Positions 23,266 to 32,522 are shown, counted from the stretch's first letter. The stretch: 64,000 nt of DNA from Antricoccus suffuscus (GCF_003003235.1 NZ_PVUE01000003.1:181150-245149); one strand, 5' to 3'. A program made the numbers and translations. The notes: a model not told the origin generated them from the letters alone.

Positions 23266-24165
23266 TCAGCGGTGGTGGGCCAGCCGCGCCAGTGTGGTGG
23301 CCACCTCGTTGGGTCGATAGTCGCGGCGGCTCACCATGCGCAGCAGTCGGCGCAGGTCGAGCCCGTGGACGGGGACCTCGACAAGCCGGCTGTCGGCGAG
23401 TTCGGCCGCGACCGCAAGCTGGCTGATCACCGTGCACCCGGCGCCGGACGCGACGCTGATCTTGACCGCAGCGTTGCTGTCCAGCTCAAGCAGGTCGACG
23501 GCGTCGAGATTGCCGAGCGCACGCTCGAGCACCTCGCGGGTGCCAGAGCCCACCTCGCGGACGACGAGCTGGCTGGCGGCGAGCTCTTTGCGCGTGACGG
23601 CGCTCGCACGACCGGCGAAGGGATGTCCCGGTGCGACCACCAGTCGCAGCTCGTCGCGTCGTACTGTCGTCGCGGTCAGATCGGCTGGTACGCCGGGGGA
23701 CTCGACAAAGCCGACGTCGCAGCTGCTGGCACGGACCGCGTCGATGACGCCCGCGGAGTTCATGACTTCGAGCCGGACCGCGGCGTCGGGCATCGCGGTG
23801 CGCAGCTTCGCGAGCCAGATCGGGACCAGATACTCGGCGATCGTCTGGCTTGCCGCGACTCGTAGTGTGCCGGTGTGCGCCGCGCGCAGGGCCGCCGATC
23901 CGGTCAGGAGTGCCTCGGTGGCCTCAAGCACCCCACGCGCCCATTCGGTGACGACCCGCCCGTTATCGGTGAGGGAAGAACCGCGGGTGCTACGTCGCAA
24001 CAGCTCGACGCCGAGCCGTCGTTCGAGTACGGCGATCCGCTTGCTCGCTGATGGCTGGGTAATGCCTTCCCGGCGGGCGGCCGCGCCGATCGAACCGCAG
24101 TCGGCAATCACCACGAGAAGTCGGATCGCATCGAGGTCCGGTAACGGACGACCCACTTCAGTCAT
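23266..24165 (-). CDS. LysR-family transcriptional regulator
   Basis: N-terminal HTH (LDAIRLLVVIADCGSIGAAARREGITQPSASKRIAVLE) plus substrate-binding domain. Divergent from the metallophosphoesterase gene. Confidence 0.85.
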   Translation of the reverse strand: MTEVGRPLPDLDAIRLLVVIADCGSIGAAARREGITQPSASKRIAVLERRLGVELLRRSTRGSSLTDNGRVVTEWARGVLEATEALLTGSAALRAAHTGTLRVAASQTIAEYLVPIWLAKLRTAMPDAAVRLEVMNSAGVIDAVRASSCDVGFVESPGVPADLTATTVRRDELRLVVAPGHPFAGRASAVTRKELAASQLVVREVGSGTREVLERALGNLDAVDLLELDSNAAVKISVASGAGCTVISQLAVAAELADSRLVEVPVHGLDLRRLLRMVSRRDYRPNEVATTLARLAHHR

Positions 24166-24342
24166 AGCCGAAGTCTATGATGCCGCCCGAGCGATCCGTG
24201 ACGTCGTACCGCTTCCGCGTCGGCGGCTCCGGTGTTTGTGACCGAATTTCAAGCAGGCTAAACGCATCAGTAGCGCTGGGGATCGGCTCGTGGTTGGCCG
24301 TCGCACACAAATGTATGGTTCGGCATCGCTGATGACGAAATC

Positions 24343-24357
24343 TTGCTGTCAAACAGC
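24343..24357. promoter_or_regulatory. Candidate LysR-type operator palindrome TGCTGT-caa-ACAGCA in the divergent LysR / phosphoesterase intergenic region
   Basis: Perfect 6-bp inverted repeat with 3-nt spacer, read directly. Position fits a divergent LysR promoter architecture. Confidence 0.35.
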
Positions 24358-24465
24358 ACACTTGTACGACCCGGTTTGTGAATTCGCCCCCGGATTTCGT
24401 GACTGACGAGCGGGAGACGGCTCGGGTCCGGCGGGGTGACGTGGTGCGCCGTTAGGATTACTGCC

Positions 24466-25956
24466 ATGTCCTCGCGCAGCCTGCGTCGCCGCTCTTCGGC
24501 CCGCCTCCTTCCGCAGCGGCTGGCCGGGATGGGACTCGCGCTCGTCGGCACGGGCCTCGGCATGCGCCTTGCCGGACGCTCCCGTATTAACGTTGGTCCG
24601 GCCGTGCTCGACGTGGCTATTGTCTTCGGCCGCTCCGGCGGTACGACGGTGCGGGTCCCGCCGCTTGGCGAGGCGCGGCTGGCTACCCACAAGGGACCGC
24701 TGCGCGCGGATGCGCGCCTGGTCGGAGTGGACGTGACCGTCGTCAGAGAGTTGATCGGCGCTCAAAAATTCGCGCTCGAACTGCCGCCGTTGACGCCCGC
24801 GCTCGTGAAGACCGCCGCACGTTCCGGTCTCGGTGGGGTAGCCGGCGCGGCAGCGCTTGCCGCGATCACGCGTCGTACCGCCGGATCCGCGCTCACAGCG
24901 ACTATTACGTCGGTGGGGGCGCTGGCCGGAGCCGGTGCCGTCGCGGCCGCGTCACTCGACAAACAGTCCTGGCGTACGCCGCACCTGACCGGGCTGCTGA
25001 CCCGGGCGCCGCAGCTGGTCGGGGACGTAAAGCACATCCCGGCACAGTTCTCTCGGTATCGCAAACAACTATCTGAGATCGCGGCCTCCGTGACTGGCGT
25101 GTTCCGCGGACTCGGGGCGCTCCCCGATGCACCGCCGGATGACGCGATCCGGCTCGTGCACCTCTCCGACATCCATAACAACCCGCTTGCGTATGCCGTC
25201 GCCAAGAGCCTTGTCGCGCAGTACGCCGCCGACGCCGTACTCGACACCGGCGATATCGGGGACTGGGGGACGCCGCAAGAGGCCAAGACATTTGAGGACG
25301 TCGGCACGATCGGCGCGCCGTACGTCTTCGTCAAGGGCAACCACGATTCCGACAAGACCCTTGCCGCACTGCGGAAACACGACAACGTGCGGATCCTTGA
25401 CGGCGGCGCGACGACCGACATCGCGGGGCTCACGATCGCCGGCCAGGCGGACCCCCGCTTTACTCCGGACAAGTCGACCGGTGGCGACCACGTCACGAAA
25501 GACGCGCTTGCGGCGGTCGGTCGCCAGTTCGCCGACACCGTGAAGGGGAGGTCCGTCGACATCGCACTGACGCACGACCCGGTCGTCGCGGCGCAGTTGG
25601 CGGGGCTCGTCCCGCTTGTCCTGGCCGGTCACACGCACAAGCGTGGCGAACGCCGGATCGACGGCACGCTACTGCTCACGCAGGGGTCTAGCGGGGGCGC
25701 CGGCCTGCGCGGCGTACGGCAGGTGCCGCCGGACCCGTTGACAGCGTCGGTCCTGCACATCGACCGAAAACGGCACACACTGGTAGCCGTCGATGAATTC
25801 ACGTTTGGCGGGCTGGGGCGGACCGAAGTGTCCCTGGTACGCCGTACCGCGGCGGACCTCGCACCTCCGGCGTCGGAGGCGACGACGCCAGTCACGCAGA
25901 CGACGGGTCAGACGACGATCATGCAGCCCCCGACCGACCAGACCGACCCGATCTAG
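24466..25956 (+). CDS. Membrane-anchored calcineurin-like metallophosphoesterase
   Basis: Metallophosphoesterase motifs (LVHLSDIHNN, DTGDIGDW, VKGNHD, GHTH). N-terminal hydrophobic segments. Start ATG 24466 or 24436. Confidence 0.7.
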   Translation: MSSRSLRRRSSARLLPQRLAGMGLALVGTGLGMRLAGRSRINVGPAVLDVAIVFGRSGGTTVRVPPLGEARLATHKGPLRADARLVGVDVTVVRELIGAQKFALELPPLTPALVKTAARSGLGGVAGAAALAAITRRTAGSALTATITSVGALAGAGAVAAASLDKQSWRTPHLTGLLTRAPQLVGDVKHIPAQFSRYRKQLSEIAASVTGVFRGLGALPDAPPDDAIRLVHLSDIHNNPLAYAVAKSLVAQYAADAVLDTGDIGDWGTPQEAKTFEDVGTIGAPYVFVKGNHDSDKTLAALRKHDNVRILDGGATTDIAGLTIAGQADPRFTPDKSTGGDHVTKDALAAVGRQFADTVKGRSVDIALTHDPVVAAQLAGLVPLVLAGHTHKRGERRIDGTLLLTQGSSGGAGLRGVRQVPPDPLTASVLHIDRKRHTLVAVDEFTFGGLGRTEVSLVRRTAADLAPPASEATTPVTQTTGQTTIMQPPTDQTDPI

Positions 25957-25968
25957 AGAGGGCACGAC

Positions 25969-28194
25969 ATTCCTTCGTCACGACGCTCCGAGCGCAGCGA
26001 AAGCGCCCTCCGTTCGCTGCTGGGGATCAAGGCATTCCGGCGGATGTGGCTATCCATCGGCGTGTCCAGCCTCGGCGACTGGCTGGCGTTGCTCGCGACG
26101 ATCTCGATGGCGCAGCAACTGACCAACCATCGTTCAGCGGCCGCGCAGGGCGTCGCGATCTCCGGCGTACTGCTCGTGCGTTTGCTGCCGGACCTCCTGC
26201 TCGCCCCCCTCGCCGGGGCGATCGCGGATCGGCTGGATCGCCGTAAGGTCGTGATCATCGGCGAGTGTCTGGCAGGTTTGCTGTATCTGAGCATCGCGAT
26301 CGTCTACGACCTGCGCTACCTCTACGTCGCACAGTTCGTCATCGAGGGGATCGGCCTGTTCACGGTGGCCTCCAAGCAGACGCTGTGGATGTCGACGGTC
26401 ACGAAGGACAAGCTGCCGCTGGGCAACCAGATCCTGATGTTCACCATCTATGGATCGTTCCCGATCGCGGCGGTGGCGTCGGCGCTGTTCTCGACGATCA
26501 ACCGGTTCTTCACCTCGGCTCCTATCGATCCCGCCCTGGCCGATGTGCGGTTTGCGGTGATCCTCGCGCTCGTGATCGACGCGGTCAGCTACTTCGCCTC
26601 GGCCTCGATCATCTACCTCAACCGACGACATTTGTCGCCGCACCCCGAACAACAGTCCAAGCACACGGGCATCTTCGGGCTGATCGCCGAAGGTGCGAAG
26701 TTCGTCTTCGGCGACCGCGTGATCCGCTCGCTCTACATCGGCGTTATCGGTGCGTTCGCGGCCGGCGGTATCACCGTCGGCGTGGCGCAGCTCTACGTCA
26801 ACACGCTCGGCGCGGGTGTCGCCGGCTTCAACATCCTCGTCGGTACGGCCTTCACAGGACTCGCGCTGGGCATGGTGATCGGGCCGCGCGTACTGCCTAG
26901 CTTCTCGCGGCGCCGTGTCTTCGGTACGTCGATCGCCGGCGCCGGCCTGAGCTTGATCGGGATGGCGGTGGTCGGCGACTTCGTACTCGGGCTCGCGTTC
27001 TCGTTCGGGGTCGGCCTCTGCGCCGGTATGGCGTGGATCCTCGGCTACACGATGATCGGCGAAGAGGTCGAGGATCGACTTCGCGGGCGGACCTTCTCAT
27101 TCGTGCAGTCCTCGGCGCGGATTGTGCTCATGATGACCCTGGCCGTCGGGCCGGTGCTCGCGGGCGTGTTCGGCCACTACTCGGTCAACCTTGGCGGCGT
27201 CGAGGTAGCGATCTCGGGCCCCGGCCTGGCGCTCCTACTCGCGGGCGCCGTCGCGCTGCTCATCGGCATGTTCGCCGCACGGCACGTATCCGGCGCCCGG
27301 GACATCCCCGTGCGCGCGTTCCTAGGCCGGATCTTGCTACGCCGAGGCAACCGGCTGATCGCCTCGGCGACCAACACCGGGCTGTTCGTCGTGCTGGAAG
27401 GCGCGGACCTGGAGCGGACCCGCGACTACGCGCAGCGCATCGTCGACCAGTTGCGCTCCGAGGGACGGCCCGTCGTACTGACGGGAGAGCCGACGGCGTC
27501 GCCGTACGGCAAGCGCGTGTCCGATGTCCTGCGCGCACGCGCTGCCGGCACGGAATCGGATCTGGACATTCAGCCGCAGACGGTGGTCTTCTTGGCCGCG
27601 GCCGATCGCGCCGAGCATGTGGGACAGGTGATCCGGCCGGCCCTCGAACGCGGCGATGTAGTCATCTGCGACCGCTATGTCGATACCACGGTCGCGTTCC
27701 TGAGCAGTTCCCACGACGCCGATCCGGAGGCGATCATCCGCCTGTCGGACTGGGGCAATGACGGGCTGCAGCCCGACTTGACGATCGTCCTGGACGAGTC
27801 GGCCGGGCGAGAGGCGATCCGCCACTCGTACCTCAGCCGGGTCCGGGCCAGTGCCGAGGGTTATCGCGTCGTACCCATCCCTGCTGAGACCGCCGCCGAC
27901 GACGCCGAGGAGTCGCGGCCGGACCCATACGACGAGGTCCTTGATCAGGTACGCCGGGCGATGGCGCGCAACTACATGCGGATCGGCCCGCTCGCCGCGC
28001 TGTCCGAACTCGGCTCGCCGGTCGGTGATGAGATCGACGACGATCTCGAGGCCGCGGAGCGCGACGCCCCGGCTGTCGACTCAACGGCCGTTGACCCGCC
28101 GATCGAAGAGGATTCGTCGACCGACGCGCCAGCAGTCCAGCAGACGACAGCGCTGCCCGAAGAGGTCGCTCAGTCTCGTCGGCCCGCCGAGTAG
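25969..28194 (+). CDS. MFS transporter fused to a degenerate (P-loop-less) thymidylate-kinase-like domain with an acidic C-terminal tail
   Basis: 12-TM MFS region (AFRRMWLSIGVSSLGDW ...). The C-terminal ~200 aa align with the adjacent Tmk (FVVLEGADLERTRD vs FISFEGGEGVGKST; DRYVDTTVAFLSS vs DRYADSSLAYQG), but the P-loop glycines/Lys/Ser-Thr are missing. The conserved N-terminus lies upstream of the first ATG (26044) with no canonical in-frame start. A possible ATT start at 25969 follows GAGAGGG. The start coordinate is therefore uncertain. Confidence 0.75.
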   Translation: MPSSRRSERSESALRSLLGIKAFRRMWLSIGVSSLGDWLALLATISMAQQLTNHRSAAAQGVAISGVLLVRLLPDLLLAPLAGAIADRLDRRKVVIIGECLAGLLYLSIAIVYDLRYLYVAQFVIEGIGLFTVASKQTLWMSTVTKDKLPLGNQILMFTIYGSFPIAAVASALFSTINRFFTSAPIDPALADVRFAVILALVIDAVSYFASASIIYLNRRHLSPHPEQQSKHTGIFGLIAEGAKFVFGDRVIRSLYIGVIGAFAAGGITVGVAQLYVNTLGAGVAGFNILVGTAFTGLALGMVIGPRVLPSFSRRRVFGTSIAGAGLSLIGMAVVGDFVLGLAFSFGVGLCAGMAWILGYTMIGEEVEDRLRGRTFSFVQSSARIVLMMTLAVGPVLAGVFGHYSVNLGGVEVAISGPGLALLLAGAVALLIGMFAARHVSGARDIPVRAFLGRILLRRGNRLIASATNTGLFVVLEGADLERTRDYAQRIVDQLRSEGRPVVLTGEPTASPYGKRVSDVLRARAAGTESDLDIQPQTVVFLAAADRAEHVGQVIRPALERGDVVICDRYVDTTVAFLSSSHDADPEAIIRLSDWGNDGLQPDLTIVLDESAGREAIRHSYLSRVRASAEGYRVVPIPAETAADDAEESRPDPYDEVLDQVRRAMARNYMRIGPLAALSELGSPVGDEIDDDLEAAERDAPAVDSTAVDPPIEEDSSTDAPAVQQTTALPEEVAQSRRPAE

Positions 28195-28200
28195 GTTGGT

Positions 28201-28842
28201 GTGGTGCACGGGCTGTTTATCTCATTCGAAGGTGGCGAAGGCGTCGGTAAGTCGACGCAGATCGCCCGTCTCGCCGACCGTCTGCGCGGGCACGGCCACG
28301 AGGTGATCGTCACTCTCGAACCAGGCGGTACGCCGCTGGGCACGGAGCTACGCCGGCTGGTCCTCAACCCGGACGGGCATGTCACCCCCCGCGCCGAGGC
28401 GCTGCTCTATGCCGCGGACCGCGCGCACCACGTCGATACCGTCATCGAACCCGCGCTGGCCGCCGGCAAGGTGGTGATTACCGATCGATACGCCGACTCT
28501 TCGCTTGCCTACCAAGGGGTCGGGCGCGCGCTCGACCCGCAGCAGATGCGGGAGTTGTGCGAATTCGCGGTCGGAGGGCGCTGGCCAGAGGTGACGATCT
28601 TGCTCGATGTCGACCCGATCGTTGGGCTGCGCAGGGCTCGGGGTGACGGCGCCGGTGACCGGATCGAAGCGGAGGGCCTGGAATTCCATAAGGCTGTCCG
28701 CGCAGCGTTTCTCGACCTTGCCGGCCAGGATCCGGACCGGTTCGTGGTCGTCGACGCCTCGGGCAGCCTTGACGAGGTTGCACAACGTGTGCGGGTCGCA
28801 GTCGACCGGCATCTGGAGTCGTTACCGGGTGCGACCCGATGA
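28201..28842 (+). CDS. tmk: Thymidylate kinase
   Basis: Intact P-loop FEGGEGVGKST, DRYADSSLAYQG and LID region. GTG start. 4-bp overlap (ATGA) with holB. Confidence 0.9.
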   Translation: MVHGLFISFEGGEGVGKSTQIARLADRLRGHGHEVIVTLEPGGTPLGTELRRLVLNPDGHVTPRAEALLYAADRAHHVDTVIEPALAAGKVVITDRYADSSLAYQGVGRALDPQQMRELCEFAVGGRWPEVTILLDVDPIVGLRRARGDGAGDRIEAEGLEFHKAVRAAFLDLAGQDPDRFVVVDASGSLDEVAQRVRVAVDRHLESLPGATR

Positions 28843-30047
28843 GCGCGCACATGGAAACCACCGGCGTGTTTGCGCAGCTGGTCGGTCAGGACCGCGCAAT
28901 CGAGGTCTTGACCGCGGCCTCCGCGGCGGCCAAGGAACTCATCGACGGCAGCGGCTCGGGTACGGCGATGACCCACGCGTGGTTGTTCGTCGGGCCGCCG
29001 GGATCGGGCCGCTCGGTCGCGGCGCGTGCCTTCGCGCAGGCGCTGCAGTGCCGCGACGGTGGCTGCGGACACTGCCAGGACTGCCACACGGTCAAGGTCG
29101 GCACGCACCCCGACGTACACGTCGTCATCCCCGAAGGTCTCTCGATCTCGGTCCGCGAAATCCGCGAGATCGTCCGCGTGGCGGCGTTCCATCCGGCCGG
29201 CGGACGTTGGCAGATCGTCATCATCGAGGACGCGGACCGGCTCACCGAAGGCGCGGCCAACGCCCTCCTCAAAGCGATCGAAGAACCCAGTGCGCACACC
29301 GTGTTCTTGCTCTGCGCGCCGACGACGCATCCCGACGATGTTTCGGTGACCATCCGGTCTCGGTGCCGGGTCCTGCCGCTGCGCACACCCCCGGCGGAGG
29401 CGGTCGCCGCCGTCCTGATCGACCGCGACGGGATAGACTCTGAGGCGGCCCATTGGGCGGCGCGGGCCGCGCAGGGTCACGTCGGGCGGGCCAAACGATT
29501 GGCCACTGACGAGGTCGCGAAGCAACGTCGCGCGGCTGTCCTGGCGATCCCGGCGAAGCTCGTCTCGATGGAAGCGTGCCTCAGCGCGGCGGACGACCTC
29601 GTCGGCGCCGCGGAAGCCGATGCCGCGGCGCTGGCCGACGAGCTCGATGCGCCCGAACGTGAGTCGCTGATGCAGTCGCTCGGTGCGGGAGGCACCGGCA
29701 AGGGCACCGGAGCCGCTCCTCGCGGATCGGCCGGAGCAGTCAAGGAGCTCGAACGCAAGCAGAAGGCGCGCGCGACGCGTGTGCAACGTGATGCGCTGGA
29801 CCGGGCGCTGGTCGACCTGACCGGGTTCTACCGCGACGTACTTCTCGTTCATGCAGGCTCCGACGTACCGCTGTCGCATGCCGATCACCAGCAGGAAATC
29901 AACCAGGTCGCGTCCGCCGTCACGCCCGAATGGCTGCTGAAGTCGCTCGATGCGATCGTCGCCGCGCGGCAGTCGCTGGAAACCAACGTTAAACCGCGTA
30001 TCGCGCTCGCCGCGTTGACAACTGGGTTGCGACTGCCACGTCAATAG
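28839..30047 (+). CDS. holB: DNA polymerase III subunit delta'
   Basis: AAA+ clamp-loader motifs (HAWLFVGPPGSGRS; zinc module C-x2-C ... C-x2-C; SRC motif TIRSRCRVL). Confidence 0.9.
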   Translation: MSAHMETTGVFAQLVGQDRAIEVLTAASAAAKELIDGSGSGTAMTHAWLFVGPPGSGRSVAARAFAQALQCRDGGCGHCQDCHTVKVGTHPDVHVVIPEGLSISVREIREIVRVAAFHPAGGRWQIVIIEDADRLTEGAANALLKAIEEPSAHTVFLLCAPTTHPDDVSVTIRSRCRVLPLRTPPAEAVAAVLIDRDGIDSEAAHWAARAAQGHVGRAKRLATDEVAKQRRAAVLAIPAKLVSMEACLSAADDLVGAAEADAAALADELDAPERESLMQSLGAGGTGKGTGAAPRGSAGAVKELERKQKARATRVQRDALDRALVDLTGFYRDVLLVHAGSDVPLSHADHQQEINQVASAVTPEWLLKSLDAIVAARQSLETNVKPRIALAALTTGLRLPRQ

Positions 30048-30051
30048 CGCG

Positions 30052-30936
30052 ATGCGGCCGCTGCCGCGGCCGATCTTCGGTATGGTCGGACCTGTGGGCA
30101 TGCTCTGCGCGGTTAGCTTCACCCGAAACGGTCAGTTGTACTACTACGACCCGGGCGATCTTGACGTGCGAATTGGCGACAAAGTTCTGATCCCCGCCGA
30201 GGACGTCGACGAGGTCGCCGAGGTCATGTGGGCCTCGCAGTGGGTGAGTGAGGAGACCGACGGCTTTCCCAAGCTCGTCGGCCGCGCCGACGAGGTCGAT
30301 ATCGATCGTGCGGGCGTCGTACGTCGGTCCAAGGCGAAAGCGCGGGTTGCCGCCAAACGGCTGATCAAGGCGCACGGTCTGGCGATGAAGTTTGTCGGGG
30401 TAGACGTGGCGGTGCCGCGCGGGGCCAAGAAGCACGACCGGGTCACGGTGTTCTTCTCCGCACCGCACCGGATCGACTTTCGCGCGCTGGTGCGCGATCT
30501 TGGCGCGACGCTGGAGAGCCGCGTCGAGTTGCGCCAGATTTCGGCTCGCGACGAGGCGAAGCTCAGCGGATCGATCGGCAGCTGCGGGCGGGAGCTGTGC
30601 TGTTCGACGTTCCTCAAAGACTTTGAACCCGTCACGTTGCGGATGGCTAAAGACCAGGATCTGCCGATGAACCCGCTGCGAATCTCCGGCGCGTGTGGCA
30701 GGTTGATGTGCTGCTTGAAATACGAGCATCCGCTGTACGAGAAATTCAAGGAAGACGCCCCCGAGATCGGTTCGCGGGTCGACACCGAGCAGGGCAGCGG
30801 TGTCGTGGTCGGGCATAGCGTGCCCAGTGAGTCGGTCGTCGTACGGATGGATGAGGACGGCTCGCGCTGCGCGTGCACGCTGGCCAGTGTCTGCGGCTCG
30901 CGCCAGGAATACGAGGCCCACTACCTCGATCCCTGA
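30052..30936 (+). CDS. PSP1 C-terminal domain protein (YaaT/RicT-like)
   Basis: PSP1 domain with conserved Cys cluster (GSCGRELCCSTF ... CGRLMCCLKYE). Position after holB is conserved. Confidence 0.75.
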   Translation: MRPLPRPIFGMVGPVGMLCAVSFTRNGQLYYYDPGDLDVRIGDKVLIPAEDVDEVAEVMWASQWVSEETDGFPKLVGRADEVDIDRAGVVRRSKAKARVAAKRLIKAHGLAMKFVGVDVAVPRGAKKHDRVTVFFSAPHRIDFRALVRDLGATLESRVELRQISARDEAKLSGSIGSCGRELCCSTFLKDFEPVTLRMAKDQDLPMNPLRISGACGRLMCCLKYEHPLYEKFKEDAPEIGSRVDTEQGSGVVVGHSVPSESVVVRMDEDGSRCACTLASVCGSRQEYEAHYLDP

Positions 30937-31041
30937 GTAGGGACCGGGTAGGCCCGGCGCGACCCCTTCGGCGAAGTCAGCGTGAGGACCAGTTAAGATG
31001 GGACGGTTGTTTTCGGGCGTCCCGAAAACGCGTTGTTTATC

Positions 31042-31114
31042 GCCGCCTTAGCTCAGTCGGTAGAGCGTCTCACTCGTAATGAGAAGGTCTGGAGTTCGAT
31101 TCTCCAAGGCGGCT
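31042..31114 (+). tRNA. tRNA-Thr (anticodon CGT)
   Basis: Manual cloverleaf: acceptor stem GCCGCCT/AGGCGGC, D-arm GCTC-AGTCGGTA-GAGC, anticodon stem TCTCA/TGAGA with loop CTCGTAA, T-arm TGGAG-TTCGATT-CTCCA. 73 nt; CCA not encoded. Confidence 0.9.
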
Positions 31115-31120
31115 CCGCGA

Positions 31121-31157
31121 AAAAGCCCCATCCGGTGATCCGGATGGGGCTTTTGGG
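31121..31157 (+). terminator. Rho-independent terminator after tRNA-Thr
   Basis: Perfect 15-bp stem AAAAGCCCCATCCGG / CCGGATGGGGCTTTT with loop TGAT, followed by TTTGGG. Confidence 0.8.
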
Positions 31158-31217
31158 TGGTGCGGGCGCTCGCGTGAGATCCCGCGGGATTTCGTCAGAC
31201 AGGTCGATCTGCGGTAG

Positions 31218-31373
31218 CTAGCTTTTGACTCTGCGCTTGATGGCGCCGTAGGCGAGCGTAGCCAGGAACAGCACGATCCCGACGATCGCGAGCCAGAGCA
31301 GCCCCTTGACCACAAATCCGAGTACGGCGATTACAAGCCAGACGACCAGCAGTACCACTATCAATGTCAACAT
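31218..31373 (-). CDS. Small hydrophobic membrane protein (51 aa, two TM helices)
   Basis: Only the 3'-terminal 156 nt of ORF 31218..32270 is protein-like (MLTLIVVLLVVWLVIAVLGF ... KRRVKS). The rest of that ORF is an Arg-rich antisense artefact over the SPFH gene. Local GC is lower. Confidence 0.5.
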   Translation of the reverse strand: MLTLIVVLLVVWLVIAVLGFVVKGLLWLAIVGIVLFLATLAYGAIKRRVKS

Positions 31374-31478
31374 TCCAAAACCGTACCTGACCACGGCGTC
31401 GCAGGTACGCCGGATCGCCGCACCCGCCGATAGAGTGTGTGTCGACCGAATCGTCGGTAACACAAGGAGACACGCAAC

Positions 31479-32522
31479 GTGAGCACACCAGGACCGGGTC
31501 AGTTCCCGCCGCCAACCGGACCGGGGCCGTCCGCTCAGCGGCAGCCGCCGGCGCCGCAATACGCGCAGCCTCCGGCTGGGCAATCGCAGTCGCCGGGCCA
31601 GAGCGTTGGTCCCGTCGGGCACGCCGGGGCAAAGGTCGCGGTGACGGAGAAGCATGCGTGGCAGGTCAGTGGGTTCCTTGCGCTGGCCGTTTCTTTGGTG
31701 CTGTTTCTGTTCGCTGCTATCGAGCTGATCTTGGCTATTTCCAATGGTTCGGAAGACAAGAGCGTCGCGGGCAACGTCGCGTTGTGCATCATCGCGTTCA
31801 TCCTGGGACTGCTCCTCGCCCGCCCGTTGATCATCATCCAGCCGGGGCAGGCACGCGTGATCCAGTTCTTCGGCCGTTACGTCGGTACGGCGCGACGCAC
31901 CGGGCTGACCTGGGTGATGCCGTTGACGACGCGCAGGCCGGTATCGATCAAGGTGCACAACTTCGAGACCAGCGCCCTGAAGGTCAACGACGCGGACGGT
32001 AATCCGGTGGACGTCGCGGCGATCGTGGTCTGGCAGGTCGCCGACACCGCGAAGGCGACGTTCGCGGTCGAGGATTATGGCAGCTTTGTCGCCGTACAGG
32101 CGGAGTCGGCCGTGCGACACGTCGCGACCACCCATCCGTACGACGACCCCACGGGCAGCGGTACGTCGCTGCGTGGGTCGACCGATCTGGTGTCTGCGGA
32201 GCTCGCTCGTGAGGTTGCCACGCGGGTGTACGTCGCGGGAGTGCAGATCGTCGAGGTGCGCATCAGCCACCTTGCGTACTCATCCGAGATCGCCCAGGCG
32301 ATGTTGCAGCGGCAGCAGGCCAGCGCGATCGTCGCGGCACGTGAACGGATTGTTGAGGGCGCGGTGGGGATGGTCGAGATGGCCGTCAACCGGCTTGAAG
32401 CCAACAGCGTGGTCACCATGGACAACGAACGCAAATCCGCGATGGTGTCCAACTTGCTGGTCGTCCTCTGCGGCGATCAGAAGGCAACGCCCGTCGTCAA
32501 CACTGGTACTTCGGTTATATAA
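31479..32522 (+). CDS. SPFH / band-7 (stomatin-prohibitin) domain membrane protein with Pro/Gln-rich N-terminus
   Basis: N-terminal low-complexity region ([18 protein letters not shown]), one TM, SPFH core, C-terminal coiled-coil-like region. GTG start with AGGAGA 8 nt upstream. Confidence 0.85.

Follow-up and report, generated by a model that had tools for sequence, protein, structure and literature searches.

A putative thymidylate kinase pseudoenzyme fused to an MFS transporter upstream of tmk-holB in Antricoccus suffuscus

In a window of 64,000 nt from Antricoccus suffuscus (GCF_003003235.1 NZ_PVUE01000003.1:181150-245149; all positions are counted from the window start) we identified a gene upstream of tmk and holB that encodes an MFS transporter with a C-terminal thymidylate kinase (Tmk) domain. 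Judged by its sequence, this fused domain is a catalytically dead Tmk pseudoenzyme. Taken together, the results make it probable that the product is a DHA3-type MFS protein with a retained dead Tmk domain, which descends from an ancestral fusion that became redundant, has a structural or regulatory role and is translated from an ATT codon within an operon. The novelty is the dead-domain variant within an MFS-Tmk family that is known from annotation only, as the protein itself is already listed in NCBI as thymidylate kinase / dTMP kinase. The family offers a natural case of an enzyme that would have turned into a pseudoenzyme and been kept for long on a transporter, and since the active state persists in sister lineages both forms can be compared directly.

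Table 1. Features of the MFS-pseudoTmk locus (positions in the window)
Feature	Position	Strand	Remarks
Metallophosphoesterase gene	24436..25956	+	Metallophos and Metallophos_2 matches; stop TAG 25954-25956
Shine-Dalgarno-like GAGAGGG	25956..25962	+	6 nt before ATT 25969; conserved in all four relatives
MFS-pseudoTmk gene, whole	25969..28194	+	741 aa from the putative ATT start; stop 28192-28194
N-terminal extension	25969..26043	+	25 codons from ATT; missing from the GenBank (ATG 26044) and RefSeq (ATC 26026) models
MFS transporter domain	26029..27339	+	residues ~21-457; 12 long helices; motif A GAIADRLDRRK
Pseudo-thymidylate-kinase domain	27373..28011	+	residues ~469-681; PF02223, Tmk-like fold
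Degenerate P-loop GADLERTRD	27400..27426	+	replaces GxxGxGK[ST]T; aligned to GGEGVGKST of the adjacent Tmk
Best-conserved pseudo-domain segment	27595..27645	+	AAADRAEHVGQVIRPAL; corresponds to helix alpha3 of Tmk
Retained DRY, altered downstream pocket	27667..27705	+	CDRYVDTTVAFLS versus TDRYADSSLAYQG of Tmk (alignment)
LID deletion site	27796..27810	+	after LDES; ~22 residues of the real Tmk (VDPIVGLRRARGDGAGDRIEAEGLEFHK) absent
Acidic disordered C-terminal tail	28012..28191	+	60 aa, 17 D+E versus 3 K+R; pLDDT below 50 (AF2)
tmk (genuine dTMP kinase by sequence)	28201..28842	+	P-loop GGEGVGKS, LID and DRY present
holB (DNA polymerase III delta')	28839..30047	+	NF005926, 528 bits; 4-nt overlap with tmk
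PSP1-domain gene	30052..30936	+	Pfam PSP1 on its counterparts in L001 and L084; closes the apparent operon
Terminator-like hairpin and T-rich tract	31008..31030	+	3' of the operon

Architecture of the fusion protein and loss of the kinase motifs

The phosphoesterase, MFS-pseudoTmk, tmk, holB and PSP1 genes form an apparent operon with gaps of 12 nt and 6 nt, an overlap of 4 nt and a gap of 4 nt, followed by the terminator-like hairpin. The metallophosphoesterase gene is probably its first gene; a promoter scan of positions 23800-31500 did not find a sigma-70-like site, which is uninformative for a high-GC actinobacterium. The same metallophosphoesterase gene lies upstream in the related loci L001-L004 and in the Jatrophihabitans loci L011 and L015, and a homologue of the PSP1 gene occupies the same position in related loci. 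The fusion protein is recorded in NCBI as PRZ43139.1 / WP_106348103.1 and WP_272946784.1. The tmk product of the window matches A. suffuscus PRZ43140.1 with 100% identity; the start of that record is placed one codon downstream, at 28204.

The N-terminal half is assigned to the MFS superfamily by profile matches (MFS_1 PF07690, E=5.7e-16, 58.8 bits; MFS_3 PF05977, 28.7 bits), by 12 long helices predicted with pLDDT above 90 (AF2) and by a motif A between TM2 and TM3 whose residues are nearly invariant in 88 homologues. The transporter is of the DHA3 / MFS_3 type, and the Tmk domain is attached to its cytoplasmic C-terminus. MFS transporters match this half at TM 0.7-0.8 in Foldseek, where the nucleoside transporter NupG ranks first (E=3e-8). 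Deducing a substrate from this rank is unjustified, as NorA, VMAT2, SPNS2 and sialin are equal in score.

The original prediction described the C-terminal part as a P-loop-dead Tmk homologue beside a genuine tmk-holB pair, and both pairwise and profile alignments agree with it. The C-terminal 284 aa share 35% identity with the adjacent Tmk over 139 aa (BLASTP, E=9e-25), and bacterial Tmks are matched at E=2e-21 in a phmmer search against PDB sequences. Thymidylate_kin PF02223 is hit with E=3.7e-18 and 66.3 bits against a gathering threshold of 27, which places the domain in this family, with the match spanning residues 492-614 in the 745-aa stop-to-stop frame. The AF2 model predicts the domain with pLDDT above 90, and in Foldseek its fold reaches TM 0.75-0.81 against the Tmks of T. 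thermophilus and P. aeruginosa. However, the fused protein scores 69.3 bits on TIGR00041, under the equivalog cut-off of 83.25, whereas the adjacent Tmk reaches 176.6 bits on this profile and E=3e-49 on PF02223.

Where the P-loop is expected the domain carries GADLERTRD. The window protein keeps only the DRY, the EP motif (TGEPT) and the ADR arginine, with a Thr at the Ser100 position. Its CDRYVDTTVAF aligns to TDRYADSSLAY of the adjacent Tmk, but in the pocket the stacking Tyr is changed to Ala, the Gln of AYQ to Leu and a Tyr to Phe. The proposal that the nucleotide-monophosphate site is retained holds for the three kept motifs of the window protein and fails for these pocket residues and for the DRY, which varies between homologues. 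At the LID, the alignment of the pseudo-domain with a PDB chain skips from chain residue 140 to 166; this deletion had been missed in the original prediction. Compared with canonical Tmk (TIGR00041 / PF02223; P. aeruginosa 4E5U, T. thermophilus 5X7J), the window domain has the same fold (TM ~0.8, 28-32% identity) and shares the EP motif, the ADRxxH helix, PAL and DRY, but it is without the P-loop, the LID and the pocket aromatic, Gln and Tyr, is tethered to a membrane protein and lies under the equivalog cut-off. The protein closes with the long acidic, disordered tail that had also been described before (Table 1), ending in a conserved EEVAQSRRPAE.

The same losses recur throughout the dead clade, with residue roles in the pocket taken from S. 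aureus TMK (Phe66, Arg70, Ser97 and Gln101; PMC10610096) and from human TMPK (PMC8679000). The P-loop is absent in all 120 best homologues, and none of 158 dead-clade sequences has the P-loop Lys (K17). The stacking Tyr70 is Ala in 83 and Ser in 55 of these sequences (138/158), and Gln105 is replaced by His, Leu or Phe, with His in 103/158. Phe, Val or Leu stands at the Tyr104 position. Arg51 is kept in 61/158, and the DRY is variable, with its D in 51/158 and its R in 71/158. The LID is mostly 0-14 aa long, compared with 26-30 aa in active Tmks. In contrast, conservation at these catalytic and pocket sites is ~100% among 111 fused-active and 133 stand-alone Tmks. Canonical binding of dTMP by the pseudo-domain is doubtful because the stacking aromatic, the Gln and the Tyr of the pocket are lost. 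Nevertheless, the window protein may bind some phosphate or nucleotide, given its DRY, EP motif and ADR arginine.

Among the features of a dTMP kinase (EC 2.7.4.9) the domain has the DRY, whereas the P-loop, the LID basic residues, the thymine pocket and a TIGR00041 score above the cut-off are missing. A still-active kinase with an unconventional ATP site, as implied by the NCBI and UniProt names and by the PF02223 score above the gathering threshold, is extremely unlikely: the domain lacks the P-loop Lys/Ser and the LID arginines, falls below the TIGR00041 cut-off, and an intact tmk was present wherever it was looked for. The named dead-domain homologues in the searched databases are all called "dTMP kinase", "thymidylate kinase" or "bifunctional MFS transporter/dTMP kinase". 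The last name describes the MFS-then-Tmk architecture correctly, but the kinase function it implies would be missing, and the label "dTMP kinase" is probably wrong for the window protein and its clade. Such labels could lead metabolic reconstructions to include a spurious Tmk, or a spurious second copy of an essential enzyme.

Distribution and origin of the dead form

MFS-Tmk fusions are not confined to the window. In many Actinobacteria, among them Nanopelagicales, Kineosporiaceae and Streptomycetaceae, a fusion with an intact P-loop immediately precedes holB. The long membrane-fused Tmk that the original prediction had mentioned for some Streptomyces has counterparts in Embleya (1064 aa) and Streptacidiphilus (1201 aa), both with an MFS part and an intact Tmk. 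At 59 of 80 GTDB loci (L025-L083) an MFS part is joined to an intact Tmk, and a search of about 5 kb of flank showed no second tmk. holB is downstream in 58 of the 59, immediately so except in L041 and L082. In abundant freshwater Actinobacteria (acI) and in Streptomycetaceae, the Tmk module next to holB is the MFS-Tmk fusion.

The active fusions of Nanopelagicales/Planktophila, Kineosporiaceae, Embleya and Streptacidiphilus, named "bifunctional MFS transporter/dTMP kinase" in NCBI, have the same MFS_3-type N-terminus as the window protein, with 34-40% identity over the whole length. They also share the FRRMW peptide, motif A and the position of the Tmk fold, and holB usually comes next. They differ in having GGEGxGK[ST], a full LID and all dTMP-pocket residues (111/111), with no second tmk nearby, whereas the window protein is without those motifs and is followed by a separate tmk. 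A search of the literature on MFS-Tmk fusions, SCO3542 and the NCBI name returned only a transcriptomics table entry for SCO3542, and experimental work on any family member was not found there. A transporter joined to a cytoplasmic enzyme is also known from LplT-Aas (lysophospholipid transporter and acyltransferase / acyl-ACP synthetase, NF006386), in which the enzyme acts on the transported substrate. The MFS part matches NF006386 weakly (E=4e-9), but the enzyme family is another one, and the enzyme domain of the window protein appears to be dead.

The arrangement had been regarded as unusual, which the comparison with relatives does not uphold. Dead forms make up one clade with Antricoccus, Cumulibacter, Geodermatophilaceae, Jatrophihabitans and Nakamurella, and in this multi-family clade the dead domain is the rule. 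The 21 loci closest to the window comprise 20 dead forms and one truncated contig (L071). In a neighbour-joining tree without support values, the dead clade (43 leaves, 40 of them dead and 3 truncated or undetectable) is sister to a clade of 71 active forms. A separate active tmk is adjacent in the window and in L001-L004, L006, L011, L015 and L017. A methyltransferase gene stands between the dead fusion and tmk in Jatrophihabitans and in Geodermatophilaceae MAGs, and in Geodermatophilus the tmk belongs to a separate tmk-holB locus that is unlinked from the dead-domain gene.

From this distribution we infer that the ancestor was an actinobacterial MFS-Tmk fusion upstream of holB. In the lineage of the dead clade a separate stand-alone tmk would have come to supply dTMP kinase, and the fused copy would then have lost the P-loop, the LID and most thymine-recognition residues, in this presumed order. 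The fused domain is very probably what became of a Tmk module once a second tmk copy had made it redundant; the stand-alone tmk could have arisen either by duplication of the fused module or by acquisition.

We also considered a single ancestral open reading frame of the form MFS-pTmk-linker-Tmk, of which the acidic tail and the in-frame tmk, separated by the stop plus 2 codons, would be a relic. This candidate was rejected. Two Tmk-like domains in one protein occurred in 0 of the 149 listed 50%-identity representatives, and the methyltransferase gene, read in the wrong frame, accounts for the long open frames that precede tmk in L006, L011, L015 and L017. The shared frame of the MFS-pseudoTmk gene and tmk is a 1-in-3 coincidence.

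Selection on the dead domain and its possible roles

The dN/dS of the pseudo-domain is 0.11-0.18 compared with 0.07-0.12 for the real Tmk. Values are 0.04-0.08 in the MFS domain, 0.07-0.36 in the N-terminal extension and 0.44-0.50 in the acidic tail. The pseudo-domain is under purifying selection and therefore presumably has a non-catalytic job. A relic of tmk duplication had been considered originally; its first half agrees with the very probable derivation from a redundant Tmk module, but its second half, decay, does not fit these rates. That the domain is functionless and drifting to loss, as might be read from the lost catalytic motifs and from the weak Tmk similarity (27-64 bits) in the distant clade members L018 and L020-L024, is very improbable, since dN/dS is near that of the essential Tmk and the domain is kept across several families with invariant residues and a confident fold prediction (pLDDT above 90).

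The best-conserved part of the pseudo-domain is the segment that corresponds to helix alpha3 (conservation fractions 0.8-0.9); D546, R547, H550, P557, A558 and L559 are shared without exception by 18 clade members. Human TMPK contacts thymine and dimerises through helix alpha3 (PMC8679000). Because the conservation peaks in the Tmk dimer interface, a structural or regulatory role, possibly in dimerisation, seems likeliest by analogy with active Tmks. The dead domain would hold the transporter as a dimer, or it would form a cytoplasmic gate or docking surface.

The same helix would also suit a pseudo-Tmk:Tmk heterodimer, in which the domain docks the genuine kinase through the Tmk dimer interface and tethers or regulates it at the membrane. 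Helix alpha3 mediates the obligate dimerisation of Tmks (PMC8679000) and shows the highest conservation within the pseudo-domain, and in the Antricoccus clade the two genes follow each other in the same orientation, 6 nt apart. However, the adjacency is gone in Geodermatophilus and is interrupted by the methyltransferase gene in Jatrophihabitans and Geodermatophilaceae MAGs, and we regard such docking as quite improbable. A nucleotide sensor that gates the MFS part by the thymidylate pool, with dTMP or another phosphorylated ligand, appears distinctly unlikely as well. The E-P motif (TGEPT), ADR arginine, DRY and Thr at the Ser100 position of the window protein, the confidently predicted Tmk-like fold and an operon link to tmk-holB that fits a theme of dTTP supply in Antricoccus would be compatible with it, but the thymine-recognition residues are replaced, the DRY is not conserved across the clade and the Geodermatophilus gene is unlinked from tmk-holB. 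In a broader form, a regulatory pseudoenzyme would couple the transporter to tmk-holB supply by its dimer interface or its remodelled pocket, either by binding Tmk or by sensing a nucleotide. This is speculative and in our view unlikely; if true, it would be the first pseudokinase of NMP-kinase descent described to control a membrane transporter, and initiation at the conserved AUU would limit its amount and tie it to the upstream phosphoesterase.

Start of translation of the MFS-pseudoTmk gene

From the first ATG the open reading frame covers 26044-28194 (716 aa), and the frame is open back to the TAG at 25954-25956. No in-frame ATG, GTG or TTG is found between this TAG and ATG 26044, as the original prediction had stated in proposing a start at ATT 25969. 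The TAG of the metallophosphoesterase gene runs into the MFS gene's ribosome-binding site, and GAGAGGG is the only Shine-Dalgarno match. Calculated against an assumed 16S 3' tail, for which the background mean is -3.6 and -8 is reached at 6.5% of positions, this element has a duplex energy of -9.1 kcal/mol in three sequences (the window, L001 and L002) and of -7.3 in L003, compared with -0.9 to -3.6 kcal/mol before ATC 26026 and ATG 26044. Codons 7-19 of the extension behave as coding sequence, with 6 third-, 2 first- and 0 second-position changes in four relatives. The N-terminal peptide E-S/N-A-L..L..I..FRRMW is conserved family-wide, and a helix is predicted at residues 10-18 (AF2). The start region is identical in an independent assembly of the same organism, and one relative has ATC in place of the ATT start. 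With no canonical start, a spaced Shine-Dalgarno sequence and coding conservation downstream, the region has the marks of a non-AUG start, and ATT 25969 is most likely the start codon.

The other starts are together rather unlikely. ATG 26044, used by GenBank, is the only canonical codon and was picked by gene callers in all four relatives, and ATC 26026, used by RefSeq, is a codon conserved in all four. Both are without a Shine-Dalgarno match, with the weaker duplex energies given above. Moreover, the 19 codons before the ATC show the third-position substitution pattern and are homologous to N-termini of homologues with an ordinary ATG. Readthrough of the phosphoesterase TAG, which had been offered as the second option, would be conceivable in the window, L001 and L002, where this stop is in frame with the MFS gene, but it is excluded in L003, where the upstream stop is a TGA in a different frame and the N-terminal peptide is still conserved; readthrough is thus unlikely. 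In L004 the phosphoesterase stop overlaps the MFS ATG as ATGA, and an ancestral ATG of this kind, overlapping the upstream stop, seems to have been lost to give the ATT start. Translation from the ATT would be driven by GAGAGGG and by coupling to the phosphoesterase gene, whose translation ends 12 nt earlier.

AUU-initiated genes are known from E. coli with infC and pcnB. The window gene resembles them in an Ile-codon start behind a Shine-Dalgarno sequence that is conserved in relatives, but it differs in that no autoregulatory logic is known for it and one relative uses ATC. As GenBank, RefSeq and Prodigal-type models differ on the start, the gene, with its well-supported AUU/AUC initiation, is a useful test case for start-site prediction. 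Initiation at ATT or ATC is normally very inefficient, and a shorter protein from Met26 could also be made.

The degenerate thymidylate kinase domain

MFS-pTmk, the window gene for an MFS transporter with a fused pseudo-Tmk domain (residues numbered from ATT 25969), matched MFS_1, MFS_3 and Thymidylate_kin (E=3.7e-18) in Pfam, and the stand-alone tmk product, identical (100%) to Antricoccus suffuscus PRZ43140.1, matched the full Thymidylate_kin family (E=3e-49). Against the NCBIfam dTMP kinase equivalog TIGR00041 (cut-off 83.25 bits) MFS-pTmk stayed below the cut-off with 69.3 bits versus 176.6 bits for the stand-alone Tmk. The predicted alignment of the C-terminal domain with the adjacent Tmk was recovered (35% identity over 139 residues, E=9e-25), and PDB Tmk sequences matched the domain at E~2e-21. 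Judged by these matches, the Tmk kinship is genuine and far beyond chance.

As originally predicted, GADLERTRD stands where the real Tmk has GGEGVGKST. The LID segment of about 22 residues (…VGLRRARGDGAGDRIEAEGLE… in the real Tmk) is also absent; in the PDB alignment P. aeruginosa Tmk residue 140 jumps to 166. We aligned 158 fused P-loop-minus, 111 fused P-loop-plus and 133 stand-alone Tmk domains to one profile and compared their active-site residues.

Tmk sites (window stand-alone Tmk numbering) in active groups (fused P-loop-plus and stand-alone) and in dead, P-loop-minus fused domains (n=158)
Site	Active groups	Dead domains
K17 (P-loop Lys)	100% conserved	0/158
R51	100% R	R in 61/158
Y/F70 (stacking aromatic)	100% Y or F	A 83, S 55
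D95 (of DRY)	100% D	D in 51/158
R96 (of DRY)	100% R	R 71, H 52, G 33
D99	100% D	D 104, L 47
S100	100% S	T 109, S 39
Y104	~100% Y	F 73, V 29, Y 19, L 19
Q105	~100% Q	H 103
LID region length	26-30 residues	mostly 0-14 residues
E40, P41, D73, R74, H77, P84	conserved	retained in 143-157/158

The prediction of a retained nucleotide-monophosphate site, possibly binding dTMP, held for the DRY motif of the window protein but not for the stacking Tyr, Tyr104 and Gln105, which are replaced by Ala, Phe and Leu. The equivalent residues of S. aureus TMK (Phe66, Arg70, Ser97, Gln101, Arg48 and Tyr100) touch thymine-mimetic ligands (PMC10610096), and in human TMPK dTMP is touched by F72 and R76 of helix alpha3, which is also the dimer interface (PMC8679000). 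Since P-loop, LID and pocket residues are lost, the sequence excludes normal ATP binding and phosphoryl transfer by the pseudo-Tmk domain, and canonical dTMP recognition appears doubtful, beyond the reservation already expressed. The idea that the domain senses a nucleotide is weakened by the eroded binding pocket, although the window protein itself may still do so.

Distribution and history of the fusion

The arrangement had been considered unusual; the dead fusion is, however, clade-wide. The P-loop was missing in all of the best 120 homologues (45-89% identity; Cumulibacter, Geodermatophilus, Blastococcus, Jatrophihabitans, Antricoccus), many of which are named "bifunctional MFS transporter/dTMP kinase" or "dTMP kinase"; such names mislead for dead-domain proteins. 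A GTDB scan with one genome per species returned 80 loci, the 21 most similar to the window comprising 20 P-loop-dead loci and one truncated contig (L071). The other 59 (Nanopelagicales/Planktophila, Kineosporiaceae, Angustibacter, Propionibacteriales and others) encode MFS and an intact Tmk (GGEGxGKS) in one protein, and their fetched flanks show no second tmk; 58 have holB downstream, directly next except in two loci (L041, L082). Of the best 150 representatives at 50% identity, the long ones (850-1400 aa) carry one intact Tmk and a long C-terminal tail, and those of Embleya (1064 aa), Streptacidiphilus (1201 aa) and Aquipuribacter bear out the suggested Streptomyces-type long membrane-fused Tmk.

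On neighbour joining of 176 MFS-domain sequences, the window-related dead forms build one clade of 43 leaves (40 dead, 3 truncated or undetectable), sister to a clade holding 71 active forms. A few further P-loop-less fusions fall outside this clade and seem independent, among them a separate second group in the tree (P0145 and P0150 from a Pseudonocardia MAG cluster, P0165, P0176), which suggests that the fused kinase was inactivated more than once. A separate intact tmk was present at every place examined in the dead clade: directly after the dead fusion in the Antricoccus clade, behind a Methyltransf_23 gene in Jatrophihabitans and two Geodermatophilaceae MAGs, and with holB at a different locus in Geodermatophilus. 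The simplest history, in an order that we infer, would be that an ancestral MFS-Tmk fusion adjoined holB, a stand-alone tmk arose, and the fused copy then dropped catalysis, yet stayed. We found no paper describing the MFS-Tmk fusion family; its dead form, apparently undescribed, is a widespread pseudoenzyme variant within an annotation-only family. The original observation is confirmed, with LID loss and the clade-wide distribution added, and its interpretation is partly supported.

In Jatrophihabitans, Geodermatophilaceae and Geodermatophilus the gene after the dead-domain MFS gene encodes a SAM methyltransferase of Methyltransf_23 type; it was found neither in Antricoccus clade loci nor in active-fusion loci. 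Two of these genes (L011, L015) have a Cys-rich stretch (VCCVC…CxRC) in the translated 5' end. In three uncultured Actinomycetota MAGs (L018, L023, L024) the Tmk remnant of the MFS gene is very degenerate; holB is 1-2 kb downstream, and no recognisable tmk adjoins it.

Selection, predicted structure and possible role

Between the window and three relatives (L001-L003; protein identity 82-89%) dN/dS was 0.11-0.18 for the pseudo-Tmk domain versus 0.07-0.12 for the real Tmk, 0.04-0.08 for the MFS domain and 0.44-0.50 for the acidic tail. The pseudo-Tmk domain is therefore not decaying, and the proposed relic of tmk duplication is unsupported in so far as it implies decay. In the AF2 model (88-sequence alignment; mean pLDDT 86, pTM 0.77) a low-confidence linker (459-468) joins 12 long MFS helices to a Tmk-like domain predicted with confidence (469-681), and the acidic tail (682-741) is disordered, as anticipated. 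Foldseek aligned the domain, at TM 0.75-0.81, to the Tmks of T. thermophilus and P. aeruginosa.

The MFS domain is conserved and probably functional, as its motif A is nearly invariant among homologues. NupG was the top Foldseek match of the transporter, with no significant lead over unrelated MFS transporters, and was rejected as a guide to the substrate. We infer that the pseudo-Tmk domain acts structurally or in regulation. Because helix alpha3 joins active Tmks into dimers, the ancestral fusion, too, was presumably a dimer; this helix (AADRAEHV..VIRPAL) is the most conserved pseudo-Tmk stretch within the clade, which by analogy suggests that the dead domain still dimerises. We favour pairing with itself, but it could also pair with free Tmk.

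The last 11 codons encode (V/I)EEVAQxRRPAE, conserved in the window and among its closest relatives in P0001 and P0002, with P0003 ending in …RQRSE; outside it the tail evolves fast (dN/dS ~0.45-0.5). It may be a short linear motif.

Gene row and translation start

Features of the gene row and related loci
Feature	Position	Strand	Remark
Metallophosphoesterase gene	24436-25956	+	
MFS-pTmk ORF	open from TAG 25954-25956 to 28194	+	first ATG 26044
(V/I)EEVAQxRRPAE	28159-28191		C-terminus of MFS-pTmk
tmk	28201-28842	+	
holB	28839-30047	+	
PSP1-domain gene	30052-30936	+	
Terminator-like hairpin	31008-31030		3' of PSP1-domain gene
Methyltransf_23-type gene	L011, L015, L006, L017		between MFS-pTmk and tmk
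Methyltransf_23-type gene	L005:7127-7978
Methyltransf_23-type gene	L018:8657-9574

The genes are closely packed on the + strand: 12 nt (TAG to ATT) and 6 nt lie between the first three, tmk and holB overlap by 4 nt, and 4 nt separate holB from the PSP1-domain gene. No ATG, GTG or TTG occurs between TAG 25954 and ATG 26044 in the window, nor in the corresponding stretch of L001 and L003; the sole candidate in L002 is a TTG within Leu-Leu, where the other three read CTG. An ATT (ATC in L001) lies six nt past GAGAGG(G) in all four, with a predicted Shine-Dalgarno pairing to an assumed 16S 3' tail of -9.1 kcal/mol (-7.3 in L003), against -0.9 to -3.6 before ATC 26026 and ATG 26044 and a background mean of -3.6 (-8 being reached at 6.5% of positions). 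Codons 7-19 from ATT (SERSESALRSLLG) vary at 6 third, 2 first and 0 second positions. The peptide is homologous to N-termini of distant homologues with ordinary upstream ATG starts, AF2 places it as a helix ahead of TM1, and an independent Logan assembly has an identical start region. Pairing, codon pattern and conservation thus argue for the predicted initiation at ATT 25969; the alternative that ribosomes read through the phosphoesterase stop is unlikely, as L003 has TGA there, in a different frame. AUU and AUC are poor initiators, and the non-canonical start is conserved.

Therefore, both NCBI records, which lack the conserved N-terminal 19-25 residues, are probably truncated: the GenBank model by 25 residues (PRZ43139.1/WP_106348103.1, "thymidylate kinase", 716 aa, start ATG 26044) and the RefSeq model by 19 (WP_272946784.1, "dTMP kinase", 722 aa, beginning MKAFRRMW, start ATC 26026). 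In an Antricoccus sp. MAG (L004) the MFS gene ATG (L004:4983) overlaps the phosphoesterase stop as ATGA, which looks like an ancestral translational-coupling state replaced in the A. suffuscus subclade by TAG-12 nt-ATT. This overlap and the loss of such an ATG in the subclade suggest that termination-reinitiation coupling now occurs at ATT.

MFS-pTmk and tmk share one frame, separated by TAG and two codons (28192-28203; 9 nt in L003). Readthrough of this stop would yield an MFS-pTmk-Tmk fusion protein; the common frame is probably a coincidence. The metallophosphoesterase, whose long N-terminal half is hydrophobic, is probably anchored in the membrane; its synteny with the MFS gene is restricted to Antricoccus and Jatrophihabitans.
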